A stretch of DNA of 64,000 nt from Planctomycetota bacterium (GTDB taxonomy: Bacteria > Planctomycetota > Phycisphaerae > Phycisphaerales > UBA1924): positions 78,724-142,723 of the forward strand of contig JANRJU010000020.1 in NCBI GenBank assembly GCA_033763815.1. The letters are read 5' to 3'. The notes beneath the pieces are model-generated. The model was not told the origin of the DNA. It saw only the letters and a list, made by a program, of their open reading frames with translations, and did not search any database. Within the stretch, counting starts at the first letter, position 1; every line of letters starts with the position of its first letter. A program made the position numbers and the translations under genes. This document shows positions 2,336 through 53,372 of this stretch, piece after piece.

Positions 2336-4981
2336 TTACGGAGCCTCGCTCTTGGAGGGGTCCCAGGGCGAACCCTTCAGTTTCTCCGCCAGTTCCGCCT
2401 GCCTCGCCTTGTCGCCCATGCGTTCCGCGAGGTCGTAGTCCAGCGTCAACACTTGCAGAACACGCTGGTGCCCCTCGCCATGAGCCTGGATCTCGCGGGC
2501 TCTCAGGTCGTCGATGGCGGCCCGAGCGTCGTCGTACCGGGCCGCGTGGATCAAGGCCGTTGCGTAGAGCCCGGTTGTCTGCATCGAGTGCTCTGCAAGC
2601 GGTGCCCGCGCTCTCCGTCGATCATGGAGCGGCTTGAGCACGTCCGCACTGCGAGCCGCGTCGCCCGACATAATCGCAAGCAGCCCGAGGTTGTACTCCG
2701 CGTCGTCCGTCTGGAAGTGGTCCTCGCCCCACACCTCTCGCATGGCGCGGGCCTGTTCTTCTGCCAGCGTCAGCGCCGCCGGCAGATCGCCCAGCGAGTT
2801 GTGGGCCCCCACCACGTTCTGCATGATCGCGAGCGTCTGCGTGTGTCGGTCGCCCATGACGCGTCGGCTGACTTCGAGCGCCGGCGTCAGCAGCTCAAGC
2901 GCCTCCTTGCTTCGGTCATGCGAGTTCAGAAAGAAGCCGAGATTGTTCGTCGCGAGCAACCAGCGCTCTGAACCCTCGCCATGCACAACCGCCGAGATGG
3001 CACGAACCTCTCGCAGCAACGCCTCGGACTCTTGCGGGTTCGCGTTCGCGTCGCTGTTCACCGCAACCTGCTGCATGAGGTTCAGCGTGGTTGGATGCCC
3101 CCGCGGCAGGACGCGCCGAGCGATCGCGAGCCCTCGACGAGCGCCCGCCTCGGCCTCCCTCTCTTTGTTCGAGTCGCTCAGCACGGAGTTCAGCGCCACC
3201 AGCGCGCCCAGCGTCGTCGGATCTTCCTCGCCCAGGCGTTCCTCCGCCAGCTTCAAGCCTGCCCGTGCGTGAAGCTCGGCCCGACGAAGATCACCCGTTC
3301 CCGTGAAGGCGTCGGCGAGCGCATCATGAATGGCCACCCGCACCACAACATCCCCGGGAGGCGCGTTCTCCAGCTTTCGCTCCGCGATCGCCAAAGCCTC
3401 ACGGATCGTCGGCTCAGTCCCCTGCGCCTCGGTCGGATGGGCAGCGTTGAGAAGGTTCTTGAGAAACTCGCTCGCGGCGCTCGCCGCTCGCGCCTCGGCA
3501 ACGGCGCGCTCGCTCGCGCGGGTCGCTTCCAGCGCTTGCCACGCGGTCGCCAGCGTCCCCGCGACAAGTGTCAGCGCCATGACCACACCAGCGACAACCG
3601 CGACCCGGTTGCGCCGCGCAAACCGCGACAGCTCGTACGCCGCGCTCGGCGGGCGGGCCGCGATCGGCTCATGACGCAACAACCGACGCACGTCTCCAGC
3701 AAGCTCCGCGGGCGAGGCATATCGACGGGCCTTGTCCTTCTCGATCGCCTTGGCCGCGATGATCTCCAGATCGCCCCGAAAGCGAGGATCGAGCTTGCCA
3801 AGCGCCACCGGGGTCTCGTGCACCACCGCATGCAGCGCCCGAGCCACCGGCATGTTCACCGTGTCGATCGGCAGGCGATCGCTCGCCACCTCGTAGAGTA
3901 GAACGCCCAGCGCGTAAACATCCGCCCGTTCGTCAACGCCCTCCGGCTCGCCGGCCGCCTGCTCGGGGCTCATGTAGGCCGGGGTGCCGATGATCTCGCC
4001 CGCCAGGGTTGCCAGCGATGCGTCGCCAGCGTCTGCAACCCGGGCAACGCCAAAGTCGAGGATCTTCACCTGTGGGCGGGTCTCTGCCGCATTGCCCGAT
4101 GAACGCTGTGTTGCCGAGTCCTTCACGAGGATGTTCGCCGGCTTCAGGTCGCGATGGATCACTCCCCGCGAGTGCGCGTGCTGCACGGCGTCGCAGACCT
4201 GCGCAAGCAACTCAAGCCGCGCTGAGAGCGGGAGCTCTTGCTGCCTTGCAAACCGCGTCAGCGGCACGCCCTCCACCAGCTCCATCGCAAAGAACGGAGC
4301 CCGCTCGCCGATCTCGGGGTCATCAACAAGCCCGGCTTCGTAGACCTGCGCAATCCCGGCGTGCGAGAGGCGAGCCAGTGCCGCCGACTCCAGTTCGAAC
4401 CGACGCAGAAGCTCCGCCGAGGCGTTCCCGCGGCGGATCAGCTTGATCGCCACAGCGCGGCGCGGATTGTCCTGCGTCGCCTCGTAGACAACGCCCATGC
4501 CGCCTGTGCCCAGCACGCGCTGCAGCGTGTACCGACCGAGCCGTCTCGACCGTTCCCCGTCCGACGCCGCAGGCAGCCTCGCCGCTGGGGCGTCAGTTCC
4601 CGCCCAAGGACGACGCGTCCCTGGCGCAAGCCCGAAGGAAGAGTCTTGAACCGGGGAACGCCGATCAGAACCGGAGTCAGTTCTCCGGTCGCCCAGCTCG
4701 ACCGAGTCAGCGGCATCCGGCGACAGTCGATGTACGGGCAGCGCAAATTCGATTGCGGCCCGGTCGAGAATGGCGCTCGACTCATCATGAAAGCGAAGGA
4801 GCGATTCGACCTCGCTGGCGATCAAGGGCTGGCGACGCCGAAGCTCCTCAAGGAACTCGATTCGAGCGACGCCAGCTAGCACAATCGCTCGCTCGAATGC
4901 CGCGCGACTGCCATCGGCGTCGCGATTGGAAGTCGCCCCAACCAGGTCGTCCGGAGATGTGTTCGGGTTTCGCTCGCTCAT
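2336..4981 (-). CDS. Ser/Thr protein kinase with one transmembrane segment and a C-terminal TPR-like repeat region
   Basis: Kinase motifs GTGGMGVVY, AIK, HRDLKPANILV, DFGVARV and GTPAYMSPEQ are present. A hydrophobic segment VAVVAGVVMALTLVAGTLATAW is followed by about 390 aa of helical repeats. The ATG at 4981..4979 overlaps the sigma-gene stop (ATGA). Confidence 0.85.
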   Translation of the reverse strand: MSERNPNTSPDDLVGATSNRDADGSRAAFERAIVLAGVARIEFLEELRRRQPLIASEVESLLRFHDESSAILDRAAIEFALPVHRLSPDAADSVELGDRRTDSGSDRRSPVQDSSFGLAPGTRRPWAGTDAPAARLPAASDGERSRRLGRYTLQRVLGTGGMGVVYEATQDNPRRAVAIKLIRRGNASAELLRRFELESAALARLSHAGIAQVYEAGLVDDPEIGERAPFFAMELVEGVPLTRFARQQELPLSARLELLAQVCDAVQHAHSRGVIHRDLKPANILVKDSATQRSSGNAAETRPQVKILDFGVARVADAGDASLATLAGEIIGTPAYMSPEQAAGEPEGVDERADVYALGVLLYEVASDRLPIDTVNMPVARALHAVVHETPVALGKLDPRFRGDLEIIAAKAIEKDKARRYASPAELAGDVRRLLRHEPIAARPPSAAYELSRFARRNRVAVVAGVVMALTLVAGTLATAWQALEATRASERAVAEARAASAASEFLKNLLNAAHPTEAQGTEPTIREALAIAERKLENAPPGDVVVRVAIHDALADAFTGTGDLRRAELHARAGLKLAEERLGEEDPTTLGALVALNSVLSDSNKEREAEAGARRGLAIARRVLPRGHPTTLNLMQQVAVNSDANANPQESEALLREVRAISAVVHGEGSERWLLATNNLGFFLNSHDRSKEALELLTPALEVSRRVMGDRHTQTLAIMQNVVGAHNSLGDLPAALTLAEEQARAMREVWGEDHFQTDDAEYNLGLLAIMSGDAARSADVLKPLHDRRRARAPLAEHSMQTTGLYATALIHAARYDDARAAIDDLRAREIQAHGEGHQRVLQVLTLDYDLAERMGDKARQAELAEKLKGSPWDPSKSEAP

Positions 4982-5664
4982 CCTCCGCCACTCGCCTCGT
5001 TCAGCTCCCGCAGCAGCCAGGCTCGGGCATACGCCCACTCGTTCTTGACCGTTGCCGGCGAGAGGTTCATCACTTCCGCCGTCTGCTCAACAGTGAGGCC
5101 TGCGAAGAAGCGCAGCATGACAACCTCGTGCTGGCGTTCGTCACGCGACCTCAACGTCTCCAGGACGTTATCGAGCTTGAGCAGCTCCTCGGCGCTGGTC
5201 GCGCGACCCGGCGTCACCGCCCGAGAGTCGGTTGCCGCCAGAACGTCGTCGTCGATCGACTGAGCCCCGCGAACTTCGCGCCGGGTGCGAGACTGGCGGG
5301 CGCGATCGATCAGGACGCGGCGCATGGCTTGCGCTGCGGCGCCGAAGAAGTGGGCCCGGTTCTCCCACGTCGCCTGCGTCGGACCCACAAGTCGGACAAA
5401 TGCCTCGTGAACCAGGGCCGTCGGCTGCAGCGTGCGGCTTCCTCCCTCTCGCATCATCATCGCCGCGGCGATCGACCTCAGCTCGGCATACACCGCCGAC
5501 AGCAACTCGTCGGATGCGCCGGCGTCACCGCCCTGAAGGCGCTGAAGGCACTCCGTCACTTCGTGCTGGCGAGACTTGTCCTGACGCGGTTGGTCCACTC
5601 GTGCCCACTCCCGGCTCGGCCCAAATCCAGGATTCTCTAGCCTGACCATCGTTGGCATACGCAT
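4978..5664 (-). CDS. ECF-type RNA polymerase sigma factor (TIGR02999-like, kinase-associated group)
   Basis: The N-terminal LQRLQGGDAGASDELLSAVYAELRSIAA, then LQPTALVHEAFVRL, NRAHFFGAAAQAMRRVLIDRAR and the region-4 motif LSPATVKNEWAYARAWL match this ECF subfamily pattern. The stop overlaps the kinase start. Confidence 0.85.
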   Translation of the reverse strand: MRMPTMVRLENPGFGPSREWARVDQPRQDKSRQHEVTECLQRLQGGDAGASDELLSAVYAELRSIAAAMMMREGGSRTLQPTALVHEAFVRLVGPTQATWENRAHFFGAAAQAMRRVLIDRARQSRTRREVRGAQSIDDDVLAATDSRAVTPGRATSAEELLKLDNVLETLRSRDERQHEVVMLRFFAGLTVEQTAEVMNLSPATVKNEWAYARAWLLRELNEASGGG

Positions 5665-5745: not shown

Positions 5746-7626
5746 ATGACACTCTGGCGAAATCTGCGACCCGCGTCAATGACAAACTGCCTCTTGGCGC
5801 TCGCCGCGGCGACAACCCTTGCCCCATCCGCCTCCCTTGCCCAGTGCACCGACATTTACGTCTGGGGCGTTCCCGACTTCGACCAGCGGCGTTCCAGCCT
5901 GCCCAACCTCGGCAACTGCTACTGCGTTCCAACCGCCGCCCTCAACTGGATGGGCTATTACGCCAACCACGGCGTCGGTACCGCCATGTGGGCCTCCAAC
6001 GCCAACTGGCAGTTCGCCAACTACGTCAACACGTCCAATCGCCTCCTCATCATGGGCGACTTCATGGACACCGATCCCGACTGCGGCACCGGGCTCGGCG
6101 ACGCCCTCTCCGGCATCATTGACTACCTTGACGAATACACCAACAGACCATTCATGGCCCAGTCCTTCTACGCCAATGGAAACTCCGCGCCGACCCCCAA
6201 GCAGTTCGCCGCCGCACTCAGGCTCAAGTGGCAGGTCATGATGCACTATGGGCGGTATGACCTCGACGGAACCGAATGGGAACGCGACGGCGGGCACGCC
6301 GTGACCCTCGTCGGTGTCCGCAACAACCCGTGCGGCTCAAATCCGATCGTCCAGTTCAACGACCCCTGGACCGGAGGCTCGGACTCCACCAACACGCAGT
6401 CCAGTTTTTCCTTCAAGGAATGGGAACTCGTTCGCACCACCCGCAACTTCGACGGTGAAGTTCGCGCCATGTGGGAGCCCCGCGGCCAGACTGGCACCGT
6501 CGACCGCCGCTTCATCGACAAGCGCATCTACATCATCCCCCTCTTTGCGCTCACCGGCGTTAGCACGAGCGTTGCGTCCTCGCTCAAGATGACCCGCCTT
6601 AACCAACTCGACAATGACGAGTCGGATCGCGAAGTCGTGATTCCTTCGCCCAACGGCAACTCGATCGTGAGCGCGATCAGTGATCTTGAGCACATGCAGC
6701 TCGTCGTCGTGACCGCCGCGTCGCGCACGCAGCCCGCTGCACTCTGGACGTACAGCCTGGCCGACGAGGCGTTTTCTGGACCACTCACCGAGTTTGGGGG
6801 GACGCCTGCGGCCGTCGATTCCGACCGCTTTGGCAACGTCTTCGTGCTCGAGTCGAGCCGCGTGACGAAGTGGCGCATGGGCGACGGGAGCGTAACGCCT
6901 CAAGGGACCGTGACGCTGCCCTATGTCTGTGACGCGCTCACCATCAACGATGCCAACGACGACCTCTTCGTCGTCGCGGGCGAGCGCCGACGGATCTTGA
7001 AGTTCACAGATGGCAATCTGGGTGTCGCTCCGCAGGATCAGCCGGTGCCGACCGGCGCGGCGTTCAACGGGATCCCGTGCATCGCGCCGAACCCGGCGAC
7101 CGGGCGACTCTTCCTGACCTCGGAAAACGGTTCGGCGTACGAGATCTCGCAAGCCGCGGGCGCGCCGGTCTGGGTGATCAACTCAACGATCCCCATGGGC
7201 AGCTTCCCGAATCGCAAGGGCTTGCAGTTCAGCGATCGCGGCGTCATGCAGTTCATCTCCAACGGCGTCGTCCGCGAGCTCGCACTCGACCCGCTCTCCG
7301 GACGCTGGATCGCCAACCCCATTCCACTCTTCACGGGCGGGCAGGCGTCGGATTTCATCACCCTCGGACGCTCTCGGACCAACTTCAACCCGGCCAAGCA
7401 CGCCACGCTCGGCTACCGCTTCCTTGAGAACCCCGATCCCACCACTCCCGAAACGCCCGTCTGCTTGGTTGACGTCAATGGCGACGGCGTCGTCGACTTC
7501 TTCGACTATCTCGACTTTGCCCAGTTCTACGCCGCCAGCAGCACCAACGCCGACTTCAACTTCGATGGGTCCGTCGACTTCTTCGACTACCTCGACTTCG
7601 TCGCGGCGTACGACGCGGGCTGCTGA
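5746..7626 (+). CDS. secreted protein: papain/C39-like Cys-peptidase-like head, beta-propeller-like middle, C-terminal double GC-type dockerin-like module
   Basis: The ATG at 5746 lies 9 nt after GGAAGGA. The signal peptide reads MTLWRNLRPASMTNCLLALAAATTLAPSASLAQ. Putative catalytic motifs are GNCYCVPTAALNWMGYY, GGHAVTLVGV and VQFNDPW. The C-terminus is CLVDVNGDGVVDFFDYLDFAQFY...DFNFDGSVDFFDYLDFVAAYDAGC followed by the stop. Confidence 0.8.
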   Translation: MTLWRNLRPASMTNCLLALAAATTLAPSASLAQCTDIYVWGVPDFDQRRSSLPNLGNCYCVPTAALNWMGYYANHGVGTAMWASNANWQFANYVNTSNRLLIMGDFMDTDPDCGTGLGDALSGIIDYLDEYTNRPFMAQSFYANGNSAPTPKQFAAALRLKWQVMMHYGRYDLDGTEWERDGGHAVTLVGVRNNPCGSNPIVQFNDPWTGGSDSTNTQSSFSFKEWELVRTTRNFDGEVRAMWEPRGQTGTVDRRFIDKRIYIIPLFALTGVSTSVASSLKMTRLNQLDNDESDREVVIPSPNGNSIVSAISDLEHMQLVVVTAASRTQPAALWTYSLADEAFSGPLTEFGGTPAAVDSDRFGNVFVLESSRVTKWRMGDGSVTPQGTVTLPYVCDALTINDANDDLFVVAGERRRILKFTDGNLGVAPQDQPVPTGAAFNGIPCIAPNPATGRLFLTSENGSAYEISQAAGAPVWVINSTIPMGSFPNRKGLQFSDRGVMQFISNGVVRELALDPLSGRWIANPIPLFTGGQASDFITLGRSRTNFNPAKHATLGYRFLENPDPTTPETPVCLVDVNGDGVVDFFDYLDFAQFYAASSTNADFNFDGSVDFFDYLDFVAAYDAGC

Positions 7627-14364: not shown

Positions 14365-17190
<2,826 letters not shown>

Positions 17191-17420
17191 CTGCGATCCT
17201 CCTGTCACGCCGCTCGCGGCCCGCGCAGCTTCTTCCTTGACGCCAGCGCGGGGTGTGCACGGCGATCCGCGCGAGGCGCGGACCCAATCAGAAATGGGAT
17301 GGCAGGATACCCGCTCCAACGTGCGGATGCGAGCCGCAAGCCCAAGCCCTTTGTCCATCCGCTCAGATGGAACTGTTTCGCAAACTGCCCGCTTCGACAG
17401 GCAAGCGCCATTCCCGCGCC

Positions 17421-17456
17421 CAAAAACAACAGCGGTCGCGCAGCGAGCGCGACCGC
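17421..17456 (-). terminator. intrinsic terminator after rpsU
   Basis: On the minus strand, GCGGTCGCGC-TCGCT-GCGCGACCGC is followed by TGTTGTTTTTGG. Confidence 0.6.
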
Positions 17457-17488
17457 AAGAAACGACCTCGATGGGTCTGGACAGCTTC

Positions 17489-17716
17489 TCAGGCCGGACG
17501 CTCGGGACGCTGGGGCGGACCGATCCGCTCGCCATCGCCCTTGAGGCGGCGGTTGAGGCTCTTGCGCTGGGCGCGACGACGTCGCTCGGAAGGCTTCTCG
17601 TAGAACTCCTTCCGCTTGATGTCCTTGGTGAGGCCTTCCTTCTCGCACAGCTTCTTAAAGCGGCGCATCATCTGCTCAGAAGACTCGCCCGCTCGCGCTT
17701 TCACCCTGATCGCCAT
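17489..17716 (-). CDS. rpsU: 30S ribosomal protein S21
   Basis: MAIRVKARAGESSEQMMRRFKKLCEKEGLTKDIKRKEFYEKPSERRRR matches the S21 pattern. Confidence 0.9.
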   Translation of the reverse strand: MAIRVKARAGESSEQMMRRFKKLCEKEGLTKDIKRKEFYEKPSERRRRAQRKSLNRRLKGDGERIGPPQRPERPA

Positions 17717-20910: not shown

Positions 20911-22359
20911 ATGAACCCGCTCCCCCGCTCGGCGTCGCTGTCGTTGCTCGCATTGCTCGCCGGGACTTCGCTGGCTCAAGCGCAGCGCGTCTGGTACGTC
21001 AGTCCAACAGGATCGCCAAACACCTCAGGTGACTCGTGGACGACCGCTCTCAATGGCATCGAGCTGGCCATCCAGCGGGCGCAGCCCGGGGATCGCGTCT
21101 GGGTTCGTGCGGGGACGTACATCAACACGCAGTCGCGCGGGGCTCCGATCTCAATGCGCACAGGCGTCGTCGTCCTCGGAGGCTTTGCGGGCAATGAGAC
21201 GAACGAGTCGAGTCGGAACCCTGAGGCCAACCTGACGACCATCACCGGTGATCTGAATGGCGACGATGATCTTGGGGGCACCACCGCCGACAACGCCAAC
21301 ACCGTCATCGACGTTCCCCCCGGCACCGTCGCGACCGCCGTCCTCGATGGCTTCACCATCCGTTCCGCCCGCAGTCAGGGCATTCGCGTGAACGGCAGCT
21401 TCACCCTCCGCAACTGCACGCTCACCCGGCATACGGGATCGTTCACCGGGAGCGTCTTGGGCATGGCCAACGCTGCACTCGGTTCCGTTCTTCGCGTCGA
21501 GAACTGCAGGTTCATCCGCAACGGATCGCCAGCCTTTGCCGGGCCGCTTGTCGCGATCGAGTCCTCGGCGGTCGTCACGATTGTGAACTCCAGCTTCCTC
21601 GCCAACGTGGGCGGGCCGGTCATACGCGTGCAGAACCTGTTCGCGTCGGACAGTTCATTCTCGCTGGTCAACTGCCAGGTAGTGCAGAATCGCATCGTCG
21701 CGAACGCCGCCGTCACGCTGCGCCCGCAGGGCGGCACGCTTGCCATCATCGGGTCCACGATTGCGGGCAACGAAAGCACAGGCGGATTCGCCGCCGGGCT
21801 CTCGATTGAGTCCACGCAACCCGGTGTGCTGCTGCGAAACTCGATCCTGTGGGGCAACCGTGTGGGCACGATCCCGCCAAATCTCTCGGCGCAGATTCAA
21901 GCCCCCTTGGGTGGGCTCAGCGTGGATTACTGCCGCGTGCAAGAGTGGGTGCAAGGCCAGCCCTTCAGCGGCGTCGGCACGAGCGGTGCCGACCCACGCC
22001 TGGCCGACCTCGATGGCCCCGACGACCTCTTTGGCACGGGCGACGAGAACGTCCGCCTGCTGGGCGACTCTTCCGCCATCGACGCGGGCAACAACTTCTA
22101 TGTCCCGCCCGACGTGCTGGACCTGGATCGCGACGGTAACACCACCGAGCCGACGCCCTTCGACCTCGCCGGCGGCCCGCGTTTCCTGGACGAAGCCTCC
22201 GTCCCCGACACGGGCGTTGGCACGCCCCCGATCGTCGACATCGGCGCCTTCGAGCGTGGACAACCGATCGAAGAATGCGCCGCTGACTTCAACAACGACG
22301 GGCAGGTGGATCTCTTCGACTACCTCGACTTCGTCGTCGCGTTCGGCGCGGACTGCTGA
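20911..22359 (+). CDS. secreted right-handed beta-helix protein with a single-loop GC-type dockerin-like tail
   Basis: AGGAGAG precedes the ATG at 20911. The signal peptide is MNPLPRSASLSLLALLAGTSLAQA. WYVSPTGSPNTSGDSWTTA...GDRVWVRAGTY and repeated GFTIRS/NCxF/NSxF rungs indicate a beta-helix. The protein ends CAADFNNDGQVDLFDYLDFVVAFGADC followed by the stop. Confidence 0.8.
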   Translation: MNPLPRSASLSLLALLAGTSLAQAQRVWYVSPTGSPNTSGDSWTTALNGIELAIQRAQPGDRVWVRAGTYINTQSRGAPISMRTGVVVLGGFAGNETNESSRNPEANLTTITGDLNGDDDLGGTTADNANTVIDVPPGTVATAVLDGFTIRSARSQGIRVNGSFTLRNCTLTRHTGSFTGSVLGMANAALGSVLRVENCRFIRNGSPAFAGPLVAIESSAVVTIVNSSFLANVGGPVIRVQNLFASDSSFSLVNCQVVQNRIVANAAVTLRPQGGTLAIIGSTIAGNESTGGFAAGLSIESTQPGVLLRNSILWGNRVGTIPPNLSAQIQAPLGGLSVDYCRVQEWVQGQPFSGVGTSGADPRLADLDGPDDLFGTGDENVRLLGDSSAIDAGNNFYVPPDVLDLDRDGNTTEPTPFDLAGGPRFLDEASVPDTGVGTPPIVDIGAFERGQPIEECAADFNNDGQVDLFDYLDFVVAFGADC

Positions 22360-32371: not shown

Positions 32372-33076
32372 CTAGTTCCAACTGCACCCCTTGGGCCATT
32401 CCTCGGAGCGTTGTGCCGCGGCTTTTCGGACGAGCGATCCGAGGTGACGCAACTCCCGGAAGATCAACCTCGAACGCGACTCGACGTCGCCGTCGGCCAG
32501 TAGTCGATACCGCAGTTCCGCATCCGAGATCACGGCGTAGGACACGAGTTCGAGTACCGCCGCCGTGGGCACGCTCGGGTTCTCGATGTACTCGCTCAAC
32601 GGGCGCGCCGCCCGTAGCTTCGTGAGCGGGTCGCTGCTGAGTAACCGCTTAATCTCAACGCGGACCGGCGCGAGCGTCTTTTCGTCCGGAGTGCCAAGCC
32701 CGATGGGCTCCAGCATCGCCGAGCGATACAGCCGATCGCCCTCGGGCTTGAGTTCCTTCACGATCCTCGCCCGGCACCTACCCTGCAGCAGGATCGCAAA
32801 CCGCCCGTCGGCGAGCCGCTCGTGCTCGATAATCTGCCCGATGCACACCGCGGGCCTCAGGGGCGGACGCCCGTGGTACTGCTGCTTCCAGGCCTCACCC
32901 TCGAAGCTCGCCATCGCGATGAAGCCCGGGCCGTCGAGCGCCCCGGCAACCATCTGGCGATACCGGGGCTCGAAGACGTGCAAAGGCAGGACCTGCAGCG
33001 GAAGCAGCACCACCTGGTCCAATGGAAACAGCGGGATGGGCCTTTCGAAGTTGATCGGCACGCACTCGTCACTCAT
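32372..33076 (-). CDS. LON N-terminal (substrate-binding) domain protein
   Basis: IPLFPLDQVVLLPLQVLPLHVFEPRYRQMV is present, and there is no AAA or protease part. Confidence 0.8.
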   Translation of the reverse strand: MSDECVPINFERPIPLFPLDQVVLLPLQVLPLHVFEPRYRQMVAGALDGPGFIAMASFEGEAWKQQYHGRPPLRPAVCIGQIIEHERLADGRFAILLQGRCRARIVKELKPEGDRLYRSAMLEPIGLGTPDEKTLAPVRVEIKRLLSSDPLTKLRAARPLSEYIENPSVPTAAVLELVSYAVISDAELRYRLLADGDVESRSRLIFRELRHLGSLVRKAAAQRSEEWPKGCSWN

Positions 33077-33257
33077 GCCGCGCTCCGGGCCCCGCGACTG
33101 GCGCTCGACGGTTCGAACGAACCATTCCTTCGCCGCGTTGGATGATAGCCGAGCGCATGCTCGTTCAAATCCAAGCCCTCAGGTGCTGAGGGTTCATCTC
33201 TACCACCTCATGACCTCACGCACGCGGTTCACATCGCCTCGGAGCGTCGCCCGGGCT

Positions 33258-34466
33258 ATGAACTTGTGCATGAACTCGTCCTCGAGCTGGTCCATGAACG
33301 TGCGCCCGAACCGCCACCAGAACAGTCTCCAGTTCCACCCGAACTTCACCCAGCCGGCGTCTGGAGTTCCGCACCCGCGCCGCCTGGCGGGCGCGCGGCG
33401 CACGATACGGGCGATCATCGCGCTCGCGCTGCTGCAGCCCTTGGCCGGATGCATCGTGTGGGAACTGCGCGACGAGCTTCGCGAGGCGAACCAGCAGCTC
33501 ACATCGGTGAACACCGATCTCGTCGCCGCCAACGCCCGGCTCGACAATGCCAACACACGGCTCGACGAGGCCAACGAGCGCCTGGAGTATGTCGAAGCGA
33601 GCCTGGTGCGTCTGGACCGCACCAACGAGCTTGTCGACAACGTCGACGCCAAGTTGCTGACGACCAACGATTCGCTCGGTGACACCAACGCCGTCCTGGG
33701 CACGCTCCGGGGCCAGCAGCTCCCCACCGTGACCAACTCCATGACGCGTTTGGACGCGCACTTGGCTTCGCTGCGCAAGTCGCTGGAGTCATTGAGCGAC
33801 ACGGTTCCGTTCCTCGACTTTGGGGGCGATCCGGTTGAGACCACGCCGGGCGTGCCGCAACTGGCAGAGGAACCACTCTCGGAACCCCAGCGTGACCCCC
33901 AGATCGCAGCAGCCCCGGAGGGTGAGCTGGCCACCGCCCCCGCCGCTCCGGGCTCCCAGCCCGAACCTTCCGGGCCGGGCGAAGCTCCAGTATCCGGTGA
34001 AGCTGGCGCGCCGGGCGAAGCAGCCGACGCATCTTCGCCTGCGCCCGTCAATCAGCAGAAGGCTGGCGCTTCTGTCGCCCAGCCCCAGGCTCGCCCGCGC
34101 CCCTCACCGATCTCCGGCGTGTGGGTGAGCGCATATCCAGACGATCGCATCGCGATCATCCTGCTGCCCGATGGGCGATTTGTGCGTTCGACGCTTCCTC
34201 CTCAGCCAGGGGCCGGTCAGTCGGCCGGCTCGCGAGGCTCGAGTTCCGCATCGACGCTTTCGTCGAGCCCATCGTTGCTCCGCGGCACGTGGACACTCGC
34301 CAGCGGCGAGCTTCGCCTCAGCCCCGAAGCCCCACCGCCCCCGGCGGGTCAGGCGGCTACTCCGGTTGAGCCGCCCGCGAGCATCGCCGCCCGCGTCATT
34401 CAGGCGTCCGCACGCGTCCTGGCAATCGAGGACTCGGATGGCCTGGTGATCTTCCGCAGGCCATAG
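33258..34466 (+). CDS. lipoprotein with an Lpp-like coiled coil, a Pro/Ala linker and a C-terminal globular part
   Basis: The lipobox is LLQPLAGC. It is followed by LREANQQLTSVNTDLVAANARLDNANTRLDEANERLEYVEASL. The start is one of the ATGs at 33258, 33270 or 33294; the longest ORF (from 32565) overlaps the LON-N gene. Confidence 0.6.
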   Translation: MNLCMNSSSSWSMNVRPNRHQNSLQFHPNFTQPASGVPHPRRLAGARRTIRAIIALALLQPLAGCIVWELRDELREANQQLTSVNTDLVAANARLDNANTRLDEANERLEYVEASLVRLDRTNELVDNVDAKLLTTNDSLGDTNAVLGTLRGQQLPTVTNSMTRLDAHLASLRKSLESLSDTVPFLDFGGDPVETTPGVPQLAEEPLSEPQRDPQIAAAPEGELATAPAAPGSQPEPSGPGEAPVSGEAGAPGEAADASSPAPVNQQKAGASVAQPQARPRPSPISGVWVSAYPDDRIAIILLPDGRFVRSTLPPQPGAGQSAGSRGSSSASTLSSSPSLLRGTWTLASGELRLSPEAPPPPAGQAATPVEPPASIAARVIQASARVLAIEDSDGLVIFRRP

Positions 34467-34578
34467 CAATCACCGCGGCGATGCTGGTCTAGCCAGGGAC
34501 GCCCGTGAGCCGCCTGACTTGGCGCTCGCGGCTGTTCCCCGCAGCCCATGGTCGGCCCGAAAGAGTGGCGCCACAGCC

Positions 34579-34607
34579 AAAAACAAAGCGACGCCCCAGT
34601 CGGGGCG
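34579..34607 (-). terminator. intrinsic terminator after rpsT
   Basis: On the minus strand, CGCCCC-GACT-GGGGCG is followed by TCGCTTTGTTTTTGG. Confidence 0.55.
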
Positions 34608-34639
34608 CCGCAGCCACACCAATCGTGATCAAGTTGGAG

Positions 34640-34927
34640 TTACGCGGGCTTTGCGGCGGCCGCGAGCTTCTTCGCCTTGACGCGTGCGCTCAACCGGCTC
34701 TTGCGCCGGGCGGCAGTGTTCTTGTGGATCACACCCTTAGCCGCGGTGCGATCGATGATCTGGCTCACCTTGCGGAACTGCTCGCTGGTGTCTTCAACCG
34801 TACCGTGCAGGAGCTTCTCGTTCAGGTCCTTGATGGCGTCGCGCATGATCCGCAAGCGCCAGCGATTGCGGGCGCGGTGCTCGATATTCTGACGAACGCG
34901 CTTGCGGGCGGTGCGACTGTGAGCCAT
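34640..34927 (-). CDS. rpsT: 30S ribosomal protein S20
   Basis: MAHSRTARKRVRQNIEHRARNR...IDRTAAKGVIHKNTAARRKSRL matches the S20 pattern. Confidence 0.9.
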   Translation of the reverse strand: MAHSRTARKRVRQNIEHRARNRWRLRIMRDAIKDLNEKLLHGTVEDTSEQFRKVSQIIDRTAAKGVIHKNTAARRKSRLSARVKAKKLAAAAKPA

Positions 34928-35223
34928 CTGGCGTTTTACCGGCAGAGATCTGCCGCTCCTTTTCAACCTTCAAGACACGCGGACCAAAGCACGACTGCGC
35001 CGAACCCGAGCCGCTCGGGGAGCGCTCGGGTGGGAAGAGAAGTGTTGCTCCCTGCCGGCGGAAATCAAGCGGCGGTTTCCCGTTTACCCAGGCCGGGCGT
35101 ATTCCGCCAAGTTTCCCAACCAGCTCGCCGACCAGCTTCCCGATCCAGCTTGCCGACTGGTTTTGGGGCGGCGGGCGTCCGCCCTTCTATAGTCGGGCCC
35201 TTGGGGGATTCGGAGGAGGATCC

Positions 35224-35898
35224 ATGGTGCGCCAAGTGATTTCCCTTGCCTTGATCACCTCGTGCGGCGTGATGGTGTCCGGGTGCGACCAGCAAGCCAG
35301 TCCGGGGACCGGCTCGGGAACCAGTTCGGGGGCGACCGGCGGAAGCACGTCGCTCTTGGGCAAGAGCCGGGACATGGCCAAAGACGTGGCTGCCGACGCC
35401 GCCGAGCGGCAAGCCGCGGTGGCGGGCGCCGCGCAGGGCATCACCGGCGGCTCAATGGCCGATGTCGGCCCTGTTTCCTTCCCGGTTCCGGACGGGTGGC
35501 GCTCGGTGCCTCCCGCCAATCCCATGCGAGCTGCAGAAATGCGCTTCGGCGAAGGCGAGGGTGAATGCCTCGTCACCTTCAGCCTCGTGCGGGGCGACGT
35601 TGCAAGCAACATCGAGCGCTGGCGCCGGCAGGTCACCACGCTCACGGGTGAGCCCGTCGCTGGCACGCAAGAGACGCGGACCATCTCCGGAAAGCCCGTC
35701 ACGACGATCGAGCTGGAGGGGGTCTTTACCGACCAGATGACCGGTCGATCGGCCACGCCCGACTGGATGGTTCGCGGAGCCGTCGTTGAACTCGGCGGCG
35801 GGCAGCTCGCAGCGGTCAAGATGACCGGGCCGAGCTCCACGATGCGGCAAGCCGCGCAGGGATGGACGCAGCTCGTGAGCGGCATGCAGTCTCGATAA
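35224..35898 (+). CDS. lipoprotein of unknown function
   Basis: GGAGGAGGA precedes the ATG. The lipobox is VMVSGC, followed by a Gly/Ser-rich linker. Confidence 0.7.
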   Translation: MVRQVISLALITSCGVMVSGCDQQASPGTGSGTSSGATGGSTSLLGKSRDMAKDVAADAAERQAAVAGAAQGITGGSMADVGPVSFPVPDGWRSVPPANPMRAAEMRFGEGEGECLVTFSLVRGDVASNIERWRRQVTTLTGEPVAGTQETRTISGKPVTTIELEGVFTDQMTGRSATPDWMVRGAVVELGGGQLAAVKMTGPSSTMRQAAQGWTQLVSGMQSR

Positions 35899-36143
35899 CG
35901 CCTCCTGCGTCTCTGAACCCCGGACTCGCCCGGGCCCTCCGGGCCCCGCACTCCGGGGAGGGGGCTGAGGTCAAGACCGGATCTTCCGTGAGTTTGCGAG
36001 CAGAGCGCTTGCCTGAGGTATCTGCGCCGCAGCTTTTGTCCATAAGGTGTGAATGAAGGGACGATGATTCACCGCACACGCGGACGCTGGCAGCGACGAG
36101 CGTGACCTGATCCCTCGGGATCCAAGACAGGAAGGAGTACTGC

Positions 36144-36932
36144 TTGCGTTATCGCAGCCTTGCGTGGGCGCCCGCGATGCTTGTCGGGGCGTCGGTTGTG
36201 TTCGCAGGACCGTCAAACGGATCTGGCCCCTCGGATCGTGGCTTGGTTCGCCCGACCGACTGGCCGGGAAGTTCAGGAGATTCCGGCAGCCCTGGAAATC
36301 CAGATGGACCCTCGGGGGGCGGCAACAGTGAAGGGGGCGATGGCGGTGGCTCGCATTGGAGCGAGGAGTTCCCCGGGTGGCGCGGGTACAGCCCCTGGCG
36401 TGATCGTTCCGAGCGAATGGCCATCCTCGATCGCGCCGGTGCGGTCGTTCCCCTGCAGTTCGATGAAGAACTCAACGTCATTCCGCCGACGCCGGTTTAC
36501 CCGGCGCGCGAGGAACGCATCCGCACCGGCATGCCCAACTTCCGCTGGGTGGACAAGTCGGTCCGCGGCACATACATGCTCATCATCTTGACTCGGCTTG
36601 AGCCCGACAGCTCGCCTGAAGCCGAGGCTTCCTACGACGGACTGGTGGGCGAGTCGTTCCAGTTGCCGGAGGAGCACGAGCTGCCTCCCGGCCGGTACCG
36701 CTGGGAACTGGGATCGGCCCAGCCCTTCCTGGGCGGCTATTTCCACGAACCGACCGAGTTCGTGGTGCTGCACCAGGCCGATCTCAACGGCGACGAAGCG
36801 GTCGACGTGCTGGACTACTCGGCGTTTATGAGCGCGTACGCCATCGAGGACGCCCTGGCCGACTTCGACCAGAACGGGACGATCGACTTCCTTGACCTGC
36901 TGGATTTCATCGCGGCATATCGAGGCGGGTGA
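36144..36932 (+). CDS. secreted protein with a Cys-less variant of the dockerin-like tail
   Basis: TTG start 6 nt after GGAAGGAG, with a signal peptide and a Gly/Ser/Pro-rich stretch. The protein ends DLNGDEAVDVLDYSAFMSAYAIEDALADFDQNGTIDFLDLLDFIAAYRGG followed by the stop. Confidence 0.7.
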   Translation: MRYRSLAWAPAMLVGASVVFAGPSNGSGPSDRGLVRPTDWPGSSGDSGSPGNPDGPSGGGNSEGGDGGGSHWSEEFPGWRGYSPWRDRSERMAILDRAGAVVPLQFDEELNVIPPTPVYPAREERIRTGMPNFRWVDKSVRGTYMLIILTRLEPDSSPEAEASYDGLVGESFQLPEEHELPPGRYRWELGSAQPFLGGYFHEPTEFVVLHQADLNGDEAVDVLDYSAFMSAYAIEDALADFDQNGTIDFLDLLDFIAAYRGG

Positions 36933-40041: not shown

Positions 40042-41175
40042 TCACGTCCGGACCAGGACCGCTTCAACACTGAGCCCCGGGCCAAAGGCGAGCATCACGC
40101 ACGGAAGTGGTCGCGGCTCGCGCCGCAAGAGTCGCCCCAGCACGAAGAGCACCGTTGGCGATGACATGTTGCCATGCTCGCGCAGCACGCCCAGCGATTC
40201 GTCGCCAGCGGTGAGATCGAGCTCCAGCGCTGCGACGAGCTGTCGGACGATCTTGGGCCCGCCCGGATGGATCGCCCACGACGCCACGTCGCGGCGCGTG
40301 AGGGCGTGGGTCGCCAGCCACGCGTCGAGTGCGGGCCCGAGCGACTGCGCGAGGGTGCCGGGGATGCTGGGGGCGAGCGTCATGCCAAACCCGTGGTCGC
40401 CGATGCGCCAGCTCATGTCGTCGGTCGTGCCGGGGACGATGTGCGAGAGTGAATCGACCACGCGCGGAAACGAGGAAGGCGCGTCCGGGCTGGTGCTCGC
40501 GCGGGTGGAGGAGTCGGGCACGCCAACCACGCAGGCCGCGGCGCCGTCGGCAAAGAGCGCGTTGGCGACGCGCTGGTCCATCTCAGCGTCGAACTGATAA
40601 TGCAACGAGCAGAGCTCGGTGCAGACAACAAGAACCCGGGCGTCGGGGTCGCCCCGGGCGATCTGTGCCGCGAGGCGCAGCCCGACCACGCCCCCAAAGC
40701 AACCCATGAAGCCGACACTGACGCGGTGGACGCTGCGCGGCAGTTGGAGCTGCTCGACGAGGGCAACGTCGATGCCCGGCGCACCGAAGCCGGTGCACGA
40801 AACGTCGATCAGGTGGGTGATCTTGCGAGCGCTCGACGAGCTTGATCGTGCAGCGATTGAACCCGCATGGTCGAGCGCGTCGCGGGCGGCGGCGATCGCC
40901 AGATGTGGCGCCAACTCGCGATACTTCGCCATGCGCTCGCGCGTGCTCGGGTTGCGCAGCTCGCCGGCCCCGGTCTCAAAGAATGGCACCAGGCTCGAAC
41001 TCGGGTTGTCGGTCAAGAGCACACTCCCCCGGCGCTCAACGCCGGAGGATGTGTACATCCGCGCGAGCAGGGCCCGCTGCTCAGCGGGGCAATCGCGCAA
41101 CGCAAAGCTCATCGAGTCGGCCTGGCTGATCGAGCGGTCGGGCAAGGCAAACCCAAGTGAAAGGATCGCCGGCAT
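40042..41175 (-). CDS. type III polyketide synthase
   Basis: The catalytic contexts are VSCTGFGAPG (Cys), WAIHPGGPKIV (His) and HGNMSSPTVLFVL (Asn). The protein ends FGPGLSVEAVLVRT. Confidence 0.85.
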   Translation of the reverse strand: MPAILSLGFALPDRSISQADSMSFALRDCPAEQRALLARMYTSSGVERRGSVLLTDNPSSSLVPFFETGAGELRNPSTRERMAKYRELAPHLAIAAARDALDHAGSIAARSSSSSARKITHLIDVSCTGFGAPGIDVALVEQLQLPRSVHRVSVGFMGCFGGVVGLRLAAQIARGDPDARVLVVCTELCSLHYQFDAEMDQRVANALFADGAAACVVGVPDSSTRASTSPDAPSSFPRVVDSLSHIVPGTTDDMSWRIGDHGFGMTLAPSIPGTLAQSLGPALDAWLATHALTRRDVASWAIHPGGPKIVRQLVAALELDLTAGDESLGVLREHGNMSSPTVLFVLGRLLRREPRPLPCVMLAFGPGLSVEAVLVRT

Positions 41176-41225
41176 GGCAAGACTCGCGCGGCGCTCGCCT
41201 TCGAGTTGCGGACGCGGGTTCACGG

Positions 41226-42518
41226 TCACGCCATGGCTCCCGTGCTGATTCGCTGCCGAGAACCGGTCGGTTGGCGTCCAAACGCCGCGGCGAGCGTGCT
41301 GGCGACACGCGGCACTCGGGAGGCCACTCGCAGCGTTGAGTGAACGCCCAGCGGGCTTCGCAGCGCGAGCGAGAGCGTTCGGCATCGCGCATGCCTGAGA
41401 CGAAAGAGCCGCTTCGCGTGGGCCGTCCAGGCTCCCGGCAGAAAGGTCGAGCCTTGGACATCGCGCGTAATCAGCGCGCGTTCAACGAACGGCACGACCG
41501 CAATCGCGGCGTCGATCGCCCACGACATGCCCTCGCCCGTGAAGGGCTCTACATATCCCGCGGCGTCGCCAGCGACAAACAGTGATGTGCCGCCCACGTG
41601 GCACTCAAGGCTCTCTCGCGAGCGGGTGAGCGCCGGTGCCCCTTTCCATGCGGCGCTGCGTGCAAGGCGGGCCAGTTCGGGCTCATCCGAAGCGAGGACC
41701 TTCGCGACCGCCTCACCAGGGCCACCACTGGCCCGCACAAACTCGGGGCGTATCGCCGCGGCGACGACGCACAGTCCGCTGGCAAGGTCGGTCACGCCCG
41801 CGTATCCCTCGCGAAGCACACCCATGCGTATCACGCCGCGAGACTCCGCCCTTTCAGCCCCGGCCTTCGCGCCTGGCAAGCCGTGGAATGAACCGTCGAC
41901 GCCTGGTGCGCGTTCGCCCGGGCCAACTTGTATTGTCCTCGAGCCGTCGGCGAGATCGAGCACGCACGACATCCCGATTCGGGGCGCGGAAGACACGCGC
42001 CAGGCCATCGGGTCGACTTTCTGAAGCGACGAGCCAGCGATGCCGTCAGCCGCGATGATGGCCCGGGTGCGCACACGCGTGGACGTGCCGCCTCGGGTGA
42101 GCGAGACGCTGAGATCCGCGTGAATCCTCGCTGAGCACGCGTCGAGGAACATCGCCCCGCGTCGGCACGCCTCCCGGGCCAGGGCGGCATCCATCGCGTC
42201 GCGGGAGAGGGCCCAGCCCGGCGTGATGGCGAACTCCGCGTGCACGCCGGTGGAGTCAAAGACCCGGAGCCTGCGAAGCTCGGGGGGGTCCAGGTCGCGA
42301 AGACACGCGGCAAGATCGACGCTCTCAAGGGCGGCGATGGCGCGATCACTGAGACAACACCCGCACACTTTGGATCGCGGAAACGCGGCCCGATCGACGA
42401 GCAGCGCCGGAATGCCGCGCGCCGCGAGCATTGCCGCGGCAACAGTGCCCGCGGGCCCTGCGCCCACGATCAGAACGTCCGGTGCTTGGCTTGGCAGGTC
42501 GGTCGCTCGCACAGTCAC
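41226..42518 (-). CDS. FAD-dependent oxidoreductase (geranylgeranyl-reductase/aromatic-hydroxylase-like)
   Basis: DVLIVGAGPAGTVAAAMLAARGIPALLVDR supplies GxGxxG plus an acidic end. FVAGDAAGYVEPFTGEGM is also present. The GTG at 42518 overlaps the upstream stop (GTGA). Confidence 0.75.
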   Translation of the reverse strand: MTVRATDLPSQAPDVLIVGAGPAGTVAAAMLAARGIPALLVDRAAFPRSKVCGCCLSDRAIAALESVDLAACLRDLDPPELRRLRVFDSTGVHAEFAITPGWALSRDAMDAALAREACRRGAMFLDACSARIHADLSVSLTRGGTSTRVRTRAIIAADGIAGSSLQKVDPMAWRVSSAPRIGMSCVLDLADGSRTIQVGPGERAPGVDGSFHGLPGAKAGAERAESRGVIRMGVLREGYAGVTDLASGLCVVAAAIRPEFVRASGGPGEAVAKVLASDEPELARLARSAAWKGAPALTRSRESLECHVGGTSLFVAGDAAGYVEPFTGEGMSWAIDAAIAVVPFVERALITRDVQGSTFLPGAWTAHAKRLFRLRHARCRTLSLALRSPLGVHSTLRVASRVPRVASTLAAAFGRQPTGSRQRISTGAMA

Positions 42519-43402
42519 GCTCGGCTCCGCTTCGCCCCGACACCCTCCCCCGCGTGCCACACCAGCGCCATTCGGCATGGAAACATGGGGACGACCCTGG
42601 CGCCGGAGAGGCCCGCATGCTGGGCGGCGCTTTGCAGTTCCGCCGGCGTCAACGCCGCCCGCACGGAAAGCAGCGCGTCTTGATGAACCACGGGGCTTCG
42701 GGTGACGAGCCGGCTGGCGAGCGCGACCAAGGCGTAGGAGCTGGGGCTTCGGAAGAGATCGACCACCACGAGAAGCCTTCGAGCGGAGGCCGCGAGGCGA
42801 TGCAGCGCCGGAACAATCGCCTGCTGGGGAACGTGGTGGAGAAAGAGCGAGCATGTGACGACGTCCTGCGCGGGCGGCGGGGTTCCACCGCCCAGTACGT
42901 CCCACGTCGAGAGGGTTGCATCGATGCCGGCCCGTCTCGCTCGCTCCCCCGCGACGCTCAGCATCTCGGGCCTCAGGTCGGTCAGATTGAGCCGCACGCT
43001 GATGCCCCGGGAGCGCGCAAGCGTCGCCATCGCGAGCGGAACATCGCCCGACCCCGTCGCGGCGTCCAGGATCGTCAGCACGTCCCCCGTCGGCACACCG
43101 CCCTTGGCCCCGGCTGGTTGTCCTTGCGACGCCGCGTTCTGGGCGTGGGCTAGCGTCAGCTCGCGCTCGATCAACTTCCACATCGCCGATGCAACGCCCG
43201 AGACACGGTTCAGTCGCGAGAGCCCGCGCAGGGCTCGCTGCAGTTCATCTGCCGAGAGAGCGGGATCATCCATGAGCTCGGGCTCGACGTGCCGGTGGGC
43301 CAGCGCGGGCCAGAGCCTACCAACACGCCCGAGTTGAGTCCGGGAACTTCGCGGCCGATAGCTCCCCTTCGGACTGGGCGGCTGCTCGGAGACATCGGAC
43401 AT
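42515..43402 (-). CDS. class I SAM-dependent methyltransferase
   Basis: Motif I is ILDAATGSGDVP. Acidic and aromatic post-I motifs follow (LNLTDLRPEM, VVTCSLFLHH). Confidence 0.75.
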   Translation of the reverse strand: MSDVSEQPPSPKGSYRPRSSRTQLGRVGRLWPALAHRHVEPELMDDPALSADELQRALRGLSRLNRVSGVASAMWKLIERELTLAHAQNAASQGQPAGAKGGVPTGDVLTILDAATGSGDVPLAMATLARSRGISVRLNLTDLRPEMLSVAGERARRAGIDATLSTWDVLGGGTPPPAQDVVTCSLFLHHVPQQAIVPALHRLAASARRLLVVVDLFRSPSSYALVALASRLVTRSPVVHQDALLSVRAALTPAELQSAAQHAGLSGARVVPMFPCRMALVWHAGEGVGAKRSRA

Positions 43403-51088: not shown

Positions 51089-51101
51089 CTTGGGCGTCCC
51101 A

Positions 51102-52100: not shown

Positions 52101-52197
52101 GCAGGCGGATGCTGGTGCTGGTCACACGGTCCAGCGGGACTGGTCGGGCTCACCGGCAAGCTCGTTCGATGCTTGGAACCAGGCGGATGAGGGTATC

Positions 52198-53256: not shown

Positions 53257-53372
53257 CGCCCAGAGCCTAGCCGAGCCCGCGAAGCGGGTTCGGCACAGCA
53301 CGACGCCGGGCGCTCTCCCGGTCTATCCGGCAAAGTTGCTTCCCGGCCCCGACCGGCCCATGATCTGCCCTC

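Follow-up and report, generated by a model that had tools for sequence, protein, structure and literature searches.

A Cys-bracketed GC-type dockerin tail on five secreted proteins of a Phycisphaerae-type planctomycete and its candidate role in surface docking

Five genes with a common C-terminal tail

The window analysed here, a 64-kb stretch of Phycisphaerae-type planctomycete DNA, contains five genes whose products terminate in the same small module, for which tail coordinates are given below without the stop codon. A motif scan in six frames revealed nine loop-helix units, all on the + strand and each located at the 3' end of an ORF, distributed over five ORFs with two units in four tails and only one in protein 2. 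A unit HMM, trained on all nine and applied to the window translated in six frames, matched exactly the five tail ORFs (E = 1e-13 to 4e-29), with E = 0.35 for the best match beyond them. The repetition of the tail in the window, as proposed earlier, is real and far beyond chance. The five coordinate ranges originally predicted, which include the stop codon, all translate as described. Neither Rfam nor tRNA searches gave any match in the window.

The protein 1 gene (MDX2148127, SFZ23_11465) occupies positions 5779..7626 of the + strand as an ORF with an exact match in the protein collection and with a second possible ATG at 5746. Its product is composed of a signal peptide, a domain with CVPT and GGH motifs, a beta-propeller indicated by AF2 and Foldseek, and the GC-dockerin tail, an architecture common to nine orthologues. 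The CVPT and GGH motifs are invariant in the orthologue alignment and, judged by this sequence pattern, the domain may be papain-like; however, the Cys-peptidase-like character originally ascribed to it found no family match and has these invariant motifs as its sole footing. Tail 1, at 7462..7623 (+) and followed by the stop codon at 7624-7626, comprises the two units CLVDVNGDGVVDFFDYLDF...DFNFDGSVDFFDYLDFVAAYDAGC, recognized in the translation and by the unit HMM with E = 1e-13 for each unit. The protein 2 gene (MDX2148139, SFZ23_11525; 20911..22359, +) encodes a signal peptide, a right-handed beta-helix matching Pfam Beta_helix and a tail with a single Cys-bracketed unit, CAADFNNDGQVDLFDYLDFVVAFGADC, translated from 22276..22356 (+; unit HMM E = 1.2e-13). 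Single-unit Cys-bracketed tails are also found in the metagenome proteins P0078-P0080 and P0082.

The protein 3 gene (44962..45591, +), with GAGGAG upstream of its ATG, specifies a segment of signal or anchor type, the CxxCH motif CAICHH and a GC-dockerin tail with two Cys-bracketed units at 45427..45588 (+), identified by translation and the unit HMM (E = 7.5e-14 and 4e-16). Protein 4 (MDX2148162, SFZ23_11640; 47997..49724, +) carries a signal peptide, NxxGxxAF repeats that match TIGR05002/DUF7453, and two Cys-bracketed tail units at 49560..49721 (+), again from translation and the unit HMM (E about 3e-14 per unit). Protein 5 is a small secreted protein encoded at 36144..36932 (+), for which TTG at 36144 and ATG at 36177 are alternative starts and whose two-unit tail at 36780..36929 (+), evident in the translation and to the unit HMM (E about 1e-13 per unit), lacks both bracket Cys and has the helices VLDYSAF and FLDLLDF. 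Thus, the beta-helix, the propeller, the CAICHH motif and the NxxGxxAF/DUF7453 repeats expected among the passengers were all borne out. In GenBank, proteins 1, 2 and 4, the three looked up, are annotated as 'hypothetical protein'. Signal-peptide-like segments in the gene models were judged by reading the sequence, and a hydrophobic N-terminus of this kind could be recognized by eye in all five proteins, exemplified by MNPLPRSASLSLLALLAGTSLAQA followed by Q in protein 2.

All five tails run to the stop codon, which is TGA after Cys in four proteins and after GG in protein 5. The Gly-x-Cys ending originally claimed requires modification, since the three endings AGC, IGC (tail 3) and SGC (tail 4) are of the GC type, but protein 2 ends in GADC. 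Eight of the nine units conform to D-x-N-x-D-G-x-x-D-x-x-D, and the first unit of protein 4 deviates by S at loop position 5 (DFDTSGTVD). As read from their translations, the tails are acidic and without a hydrophobic span, and the PEP-CTERM signature of PEP motif, transmembrane helix and basic cluster is absent from them. Between tails, nucleotide identity amounts to 62-70% and third-position identity to 52-63%; they are therefore not recent copies, and recent duplication or gene conversion is excluded by these values.

Family, fold and cysteine bracket

NCBIfam model NF041540, 'GC-type dockerin domain-anchored protein' (dockerin_GC), is a domain model of 67 positions with a curated cutoff of 29 bits, and its existence confirms the family name mentioned in the original prediction. 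None of the five window tails reaches this cutoff: tails 1, 3, 4 and 5 score 23.4, 25.4, 27.6 and 27.1 bits, respectively, and tail 2 gives no match. Homology of the window tails to NF041540 is nevertheless supported, because the four matches have E = 3e-6 to 6e-5 and extend over model positions 1-67 (3-66 in one case), and because relatives with the same 54-residue tail exceed the cutoff, namely the protein 4 orthologue P0224 (36.8 bits), P0016 (34.6 bits), which bears the NF041540 family name in GenBank, and P0094 (33.3 bits). Shared with NF041540 are the C-terminal place, the two loop-helix repeats, the Cys bracket and, in three of the five tails, the Gly-Cys end; differences reside in the sub-cutoff scores, in the unmatched single unit of protein 2, and in the best-scoring subtypes having longer loops or other helices (P0226, 60.9 bits; L011, 55.7 bits). 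The window tails are hence new, sub-threshold members of a known, uncharacterised family. Because all five tails in the window and a number of entire subtypes fall below the cutoff, annotation under-reports this family.

The gathering score of Pfam PF00404 (22.9 bits) was missed by protein 1 with 21.7 bits (Dockerin_1) and by protein 5 with 16.8 bits, the other three tails giving no match, and PF00404 matched only 4 of 88 members of the GC-dockerin family at E <= 1e-4. EF-hand_1 scored 17.2 bits against a cutoff of 25.4 bits, and PDB sequences searched with a profile of the tail returned only marginal dockerin and EF-hand matches (E >= 0.013); passenger searches were uninformative.

An AF2 model of tail 1, generated from a 52-sequence alignment, reaches a pLDDT of 92.6 and places its helices at residues 20-31 and 47-59. 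Its best three PDB matches in Foldseek are the dockerins 2ozn_B, 2y3n_B and 2vn5_B (TM 0.54-0.65, rmsd 2.3-2.6 A), and calmodulin-type structures align with TM 0.2-0.3 and rmsd 8-11 A. In this model the module is predicted to be an F-hand dockerin fold with two calcium loops and antiparallel helices. A true EF-hand is ruled out, because the fold matches calmodulin poorly and the entering helix is absent at loop 1, where DSSP assigns residues 1-19 of the model to coil. Of the dockerin/EF-hand architecture envisaged earlier, the dockerin part thus holds and the EF-hand part, with a TM of about 0.3, does not. Across approximately 230 units per repeat, the loop ligands are D at position 1 (93-98%), N at position 3 (93-95%), D at position 5 (96-98%), D at position 9 (98-99%) and D at position 12 (99-100%), and conservation of the ligand positions together with both bracket Cys is 92-100% across the family. 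From these residues, the loops would be expected to bind calcium.

Of 222 two-unit tails, 209 contain both bracket Cys, eight only the terminal Cys and one only the N-terminal Cys, in a sample that is biased because the search profile itself holds both Cys. In 9-10 orthologues of protein 1 with 24-44% identity and differing helices, both Cys are invariant, as had been anticipated for the terminal one. Protein 5, which has a cysteine count of zero, has lost both bracket Cys together, and in protein 4 the bracket pair (522 and 575) represents the sole Cys outside the signal-peptide region. Longer subtypes contain an extra Cys pair in the linker. The last two positions of the family are G in 87% and C in 97%. 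The proteins do not always stop after the final Cys, as was originally stated: four of the five in the window do so, and 112 of 138 top representatives end at Cys, but about 16 more of the latter have 1-4 extra residues, and L007 contains an internal copy of the tail that keeps the terminal Cys and is followed by 634 aa. The tail is most likely stapled by a disulfide that joins its C-terminal Cys to the Cys located three residues ahead of loop 1. Such a staple is likelier than free-terminus chemistry, because the Cys is kept with 1-4 residues after it and in the internal copy; of the two roles initially considered for the terminal Cys, a ring-closing disulfide is accordingly favoured over a free C-terminal Cys.

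Distribution, partner search and competing explanations

In Phycisphaerae metagenomes, 3,457 cluster representatives carry the tail at E <= 1e-10, and among the best 150 of 20,227 representative matches it is nearly always located at the extreme C-terminus. Its distribution is restricted to Phycisphaerae. A signal-peptide-like N-terminus was found in 78 of 88 full-length members using a crude hydrophobic-stretch test and also by eye, in line with the window proteins and with secreted rather than cytoplasmic passengers. These passengers include Ig, Kelch/propeller, FG-GAP, Laminin_G, PliI and subtilase domains. The DUF7453 passenger is joined to a GC-dockerin in P0224 and P0226 and to PEP-CTERM in P0225. 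The window, the family passengers and this exchange support the tail as a portable C-terminal tag on unrelated secreted proteins, as originally proposed. Each Phycisphaerae MAG has a single helix motif on all its tails, FFDYLDF in the case of the window genome, and the motifs, which also include FFDYDDF, PDDLSDFI and GADVEAFF, vary from one MAG to another, a pattern suggestive of a single common partner in each organism.

No Pfam cohesin was detected in 47 scanned ORFs of the window, as had been expected, nor in 19 secreted non-dockerin neighbours at Phycisphaerae loci or in two 20-kb neighbourhoods with precomputed Pfam assignments. All-against-all BLAST of locus ORFs yielded no candidate for a receptor or a processing enzyme. 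The only neighbours that recurred in the same comparison were pairs of ECF-sigma factor and kinase genes and paralogous passengers. Public assemblies gave little context for the window proteins, one of which lay on a contig of 2.4 kb while two had no entry. The earlier statement that the receptor is not published is matched by a literature search in which no paper with the phrase 'GC-type dockerin' was retrieved, and in which the queries 'choice-of-anchor' and 'dockerin + disulfide' yielded nothing on the GC-type dockerin family.

On balance, we somewhat favour the interpretation that the tail is a calcium-dependent dockerin tag, stapled by a disulfide, that docks passengers on a common partner at the surface. 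According to this scheme, the tail would constitute a 54-residue calcium-binding module of two F-hand loop-helix repeats with antiparallel helices and a disulfide staple. Following Sec export, it would dock binding proteins, propellers, beta-helices and peptidases non-covalently on one common cell-surface partner, and its role would be analogous to that of PEP-CTERM and other C-terminal anchors of other bacteria. The recognition surface may be the exposed face of the helices (FFDYLDF in the window genome), which is uniform in each genome and variable among lineages. That the passengers dock at the surface, and that they do so on one partner, is here inferred. We extend this only tentatively to a Phycisphaerae-wide surface-display system, in which GC-type dockerins could be the docking half and would bind either a partner unlike any recognisable cohesin or each other. 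If this rather doubtful extension applied, a lineage recognition code might lie on both helices, and the adjacent pairs of ECF-sigma factor and Ser-Thr-kinase might partly govern expression. It is likewise conceivable, at the same low level of confidence, that each genome displays dozens or more of its secreted proteins in this manner through a new docking system that is not a cellulosome variant.

Alternatively, the tails could bind one another through their aromatic helix faces in a calcium-dependent manner, forming a mixed coat or oligomers, with single-unit tails pairing into a two-unit domain, possibly with Cys1-Cys27' disulfides. We consider such homotypic binding unlikely, although the genome-uniform helix motif fits mutual compatibility as well as a common receptor, no cohesin was found, and single-unit Cys-bracketed tails recur beyond protein 2 while a lone F-hand would hardly be stable. 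It is countered by the confident AF2 folding of the two-unit tail as a monomer and by the dockerin structures matched, which are cohesin complexes. Less probable again is a sorting signal for a dedicated processing machine, comparable to PEP-CTERM/exosortase or the T9SS C-terminal domain, with attachment or cleavage at the terminal Cys. The strict C-terminal place, the high conservation of the last Cys, the exchange with PEP-CTERM on one passenger family and the eight tails in which only the terminal Cys is present would agree with sorting. However, the tail is a folded soluble domain with neither a transmembrane helix nor a basic cluster, the family tolerates extra residues behind the Cys as well as an internal copy, and neighbour genes provide no conserved enzyme candidate; moreover, the joint loss of Cys in protein 5 and the sole pair in protein 4 fit a Cys pair.

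We regard as improbable that the tail, without any docking, acts solely as a module that aids stability or folding in a calcium-dependent manner or as a C-terminal cap against proteolysis. Calcium ligands and disulfide bracket being the most conserved features, together with no partner being known, is what such a module would predict, but it would not require a helix that is identical on all paralogues of a genome and yet diverges between lineages. Alternation with a real anchor signal on homologous passengers would be unexpected for a stabiliser, and the passengers that bear the tail differ greatly and fold independently.

Significance and comparison with known systems

The tail occurs on thousands of Phycisphaerae metagenome proteins, five of them within a 64-kb window, and belongs to a family that is named in NCBIfam and is without a published function or partner in the literature searched. 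Should the tail act in docking, it would define which proteins make up the surface proteome of this bacterial class, which is widespread in aquatic habitats. Its genome-specific helix motif offers a handle for a partner search by co-evolution or pull-down, and a calcium-dependent, disulfide-stapled docking module of 54 residues could serve as an engineering part.

With the type I dockerin (PF00404), the GC-type tail has in common the duplicated F-hand loop and helix, a length of about 55-60 residues, the C-terminal location on secreted proteins and an internal two-fold sequence symmetry, and it differs by the Cys bracket and the terminal Gly-Cys. In clostridial dockerins, a Ser-Thr pair contacts cohesin, whereas the window tails have Phe-Phe in its place, and hence the aromatic helix residues might merely be the domain core. 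A further difference from cellulosomes is that the passengers of GC-dockerins are mostly binding or adhesion domains and not glycoside hydrolases, and that no cohesin was found in the ORFs scanned near GC-type tails.

A related proposal is the 'Planctosome', a hypothetical model put forward for Nemodlikiaceae (Phycisphaerae) by Andrei et al. 2019 (PMC6461901), which likewise envisages that freshwater Phycisphaerae dock secreted proteins at their surface through cohesin-dockerin pairs of a non-cellulosomal kind. It differs in being derived from dbCAN/InterPro cohesin and dockerin matches, with 0-6 dockerins and 0-1 cohesins in those MAG rows of its CAZy table that were considered here, and the Cys-bracketed GC type is not among the dockerins described there. 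The PEP-CTERM/exosortase system resembles the GC-type tail in that numerous unrelated secreted proteins of one genome share a tag at the C-terminus, and in using the same slot on the DUF7453/NxxGxxAF 'choice-of-anchor' passenger (P0225 as compared to P0224 and protein 4). However, PEP-CTERM is a short motif with a transmembrane helix and a basic tail that is processed by a membrane enzyme, whereas the GC-dockerin is a folded, soluble domain free of transmembrane segments.

A repeated C-terminal module in an ordinary chromosomal setting

The five stretches singled out in the original prediction as a portable C-terminal tag have translations identical to those proposed, with Cys-TGA at the end of four tails and Gly-Gly-TGA at the end of the fifth. 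A six-frame scan of the window for the helix motif (F/L)(F/L)DY(L/S)xF revealed nine units, without exception on the plus strand and each at the 3' end of one of five ORFs, which encode proteins 1 to 5 (5779..7626, 20911..22359, 44962..45591, 47997..49724 and 36144..36932, respectively). When an HMM built from these nine 27-residue units was searched against the six-frame translation, it matched these five ORFs only (E = 1e-13 to 4e-29), the best match elsewhere having E = 0.35, and hence the repeat is real, specific and far beyond chance. Pairwise DNA identity among the tails is 62-70%, with 52-63% at third codon positions, which rules out recent copies; the tails are old and kept by protein-level selection.

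All five proteins have a signal-peptide-like hydrophobic N-terminal segment, as read by eye, and their passengers are indeed unrelated: a domain bearing invariant CVPT and GGH motifs and, after it, a beta-propeller in protein 1, a right-handed beta-helix in protein 2, a CAICHH haem-type motif in protein 3, NxxGxxAF repeats matching TIGR05002 and DUF7453 in protein 4, and a small, cysteine-free protein 5. Exact GenBank matches for three of them, from a Planctomycetota MAG, are annotated as 'hypothetical protein' (MDX2148127, SFZ23_11465; MDX2148139, SFZ23_11525; MDX2148162, SFZ23_11640). The tail genes are scattered without clustering through an otherwise ordinary chromosome encoding an MFS transporter, H+-pyrophosphatase, AlaRS, Lgt, squalene-synthase-like enzymes and a hybrid histidine kinase, among others.

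Several neighbouring features were observed. Adjoining the protein 1 gene, 2336..5664 (minus strand) encodes an ECF sigma factor (PF07638) together with a Ser/Thr kinase bearing TPR or WD40 repeats. Pairs of this kind directly adjoin GC-type dockerin genes both here and in about 6 of 29 related Phycisphaerae loci (L010, L058, L007, L014, L032 and L065), an adjacency that may point to regulation dedicated to single surface proteins. Directly upstream of protein 4, 46854..47882 (plus strand) encodes a product whose N-terminus has a prepilin-type methylation motif (PF07963), and a weakly similar gene precedes a GC-type dockerin gene in a related locus (L002, 7134..8261). Directly downstream, on the opposite strand (49739..53301), two squalene/phytoene-synthase-family genes and a flavin amine-oxidase-family gene stand in a row, an arrangement resembling the three-gene HpnCDE route to squalene. 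At 40042..43402 (minus strand), a type III polyketide synthase of the chalcone/stilbene synthase family, an FAD-binding monooxygenase-like ORF and a methyltransferase could be a small-molecule cluster of alkylresorcinol type. The H+-pyrophosphatase ORF (14365..17535, minus strand; 1056 aa) matches Pfam from residue 275 onward only; either its N-terminus carries a long extension or the ORF start is placed too far upstream. Coding signal is weak or ambiguous over about 3 kb (33200..36100), which gave no Rfam or tRNA match; here a long plus-strand ORF of low-complexity composition (32565..34466) had no Pfam match, and 34640..34969 (minus strand) probably encodes ribosomal protein S20.

Predicted dockerin fold and a family already named

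AlphaFold2 modelling of tail 1 with a 52-sequence alignment gave a mean pLDDT of 92.6, with helices at residues 20-31 and 47-59 and a loop ahead of each. The three closest folds in the PDB (2ozn_B, 2y3n_B and 2vn5_B; TM 0.54-0.65, rmsd 2.3-2.6 A) are dockerins, each taken from a complex with cohesin, whereas calmodulin-type EF-hands match at a TM of about 0.3 only. Of the dockerin/EF-hand-like architecture initially proposed, these comparisons argue for an F-hand dockerin by predicted fold and rule out a true EF-hand. Over about 230 units per repeat, the residues at loop positions 1, 3, 5, 9 and 12 (D, N, D, D and D) are 93-100% conserved, by sequence the canonical calcium-ligand pattern.

The family name given in the original prediction, 'GC-type dockerin domain-anchored protein', exists as that of NCBIfam NF041540. 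Alignments of four of the five tails cover essentially the full 67-position model at 23.4-27.6 bits, under its curated cutoff of 29 bits, and the single-unit tail of protein 2 gave no match to this model; Pfam Dockerin_1 is likewise just sub-threshold (21.7 against 22.9 bits). Subtypes score very unevenly, between 21 and 60.9 bits: typical FFDYLDF tails reach 33-37 bits, above the cutoff, and the window copies and several entire subtypes fall below it. Given this unevenness and the passing of typical FFDYLDF relatives, the window tails are homologous members missed by the cutoff. By homology, the module thus belongs to a family already named by NCBI curators rather than to a new kind of element, and the window contributes new, sub-threshold members.

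A tail-profile search at E <= 1e-3 recovered 20,227 cluster representatives, of which 3,457 remain at E <= 1e-10; among the best 150 of the 20,227, the match almost always extends to the final residue. In species-representative genomes, relatives matched through the terminal Cys are almost all from Phycisphaerae or unclassified Planctomycetota, the exceptions being three weaker matches in MAGs labelled otherwise; matches in Bacillus and similar genomes span generic loops only. Besides the 54-residue, two-Cys FFDYLDF subtype of the window, there is a 62-64-residue, four-Cys subtype with a C-x5/6-C linker (FFDYDDFVxCFExGxCPPG), and others with FFDVLAFL, PDDLSDFI, PDDLGDFIN, ADDFFxFL or GADVEAFFxxW helices. 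Tandem arrays of paralogous secreted proteins adjoin or bear such tails in three related loci: four consecutive genes of about 950 aa each (L075, 1..10201), and runs of paralogues of about 380-470 aa starting GPLNPPAGPV (L003, 4657..9428; L006, 1..9355). The 64-66-aa genes called for P0021 and P0034 seem to be pieces of longer ORFs that hold the tail alone.

The bracketing cysteines

Among 222 two-unit tails, both the Cys three residues before loop 1 and the C-terminal Cys are present in 209, the terminal one only in 8, the N-terminal one only in 1 and neither in 4, counts biased by a search profile that itself contains both. Both are invariant, with four loop Asp, in ten aligned protein 1 orthologues (24-44% identity, common architecture of about 615 residues), in which the helices are entirely different from one lineage to another. 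The two Cys have been lost together in protein 5, and protein 4 has no other Cys outside its signal-peptide region. The proposed stop right after the final Cys holds for most tails, but 1-4 residues follow it in about 16 of 138 representatives. Moreover, a putative single gene in a related locus (L007, 4795..8364) carries an internal Cys-bracketed two-unit module, still ending ...SGC, followed by 634 residues made up of repeated domains in which Cys and Trp are conserved. Paired retention or loss, the extensions and the internal copy together favour, of the two roles originally suggested for the terminal Cys, a disulfide tying the module ends over chemistry needing a free C-terminal Cys. The antiparallel helices of dockerins imply that the two ends should lie close together.

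Exchangeable tails and a genome-specific helix motif

A signal-peptide-like start was present in most full-length members, both by eye and by a crude hydrophobic-stretch test (78 of 88), and the passengers of 88 members are for the most part Ig, Kelch/propeller, FG-GAP, Laminin_G, lysozyme-inhibitor and subtilase domains. Homologues of the protein 4 passenger end variously in a GC-type dockerin (P0224), a different GC-type subtype (P0226) or a textbook PEP-CTERM (P0225; IPEP, a hydrophobic helix, then RRRR), the 'choice-of-anchor' behaviour implied by NCBIfam names. This alternation on one passenger family backs the idea of an interchangeable anchoring tag and supports a putative role of the tail in surface retention. 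Overall, the original observation was confirmed and its interpretation supported.

Within each Phycisphaerae MAG, one helix motif is common to all paralogous tails: FFDYLDFV in all ten found in the assembly with isolate REEB511 (one being FFDYLNFV), and an own motif in other MAGs (5/5, 3/3 and so on). The motif varies between MAGs, and orthologous passengers bear that of their own genome. A single common partner per organism would be expected to yield just this combination of conserved structural positions and helix faces that are uniform within a genome yet lineage-specific; the main rival, association of tails with each other, fits the uniform motif equally well. In line with the original prediction, the Pfam scan of window ORFs found no cohesin; 19 secreted proteins encoded next to related genes and two annotated 20-kb neighbourhoods likewise yielded none. 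The phrase 'GC-type dockerin' occurred in no paper in the literature searched, and the only nearby published idea is a hypothetical 'planctosome' of Nemodlikiaceae, based on a few generic cohesin and dockerin matches (PMC6461901). What the analysis adds is the disulfide-staple evidence, the subtype set, the alternation with PEP-CTERM and the helix motif particular to each genome, the last being a route to the binding partner of a very large family. The genome-uniform helix faces expected from one common partner per organism have a known counterpart, as species-specific cohesin-dockerin pairs show the same behaviour.
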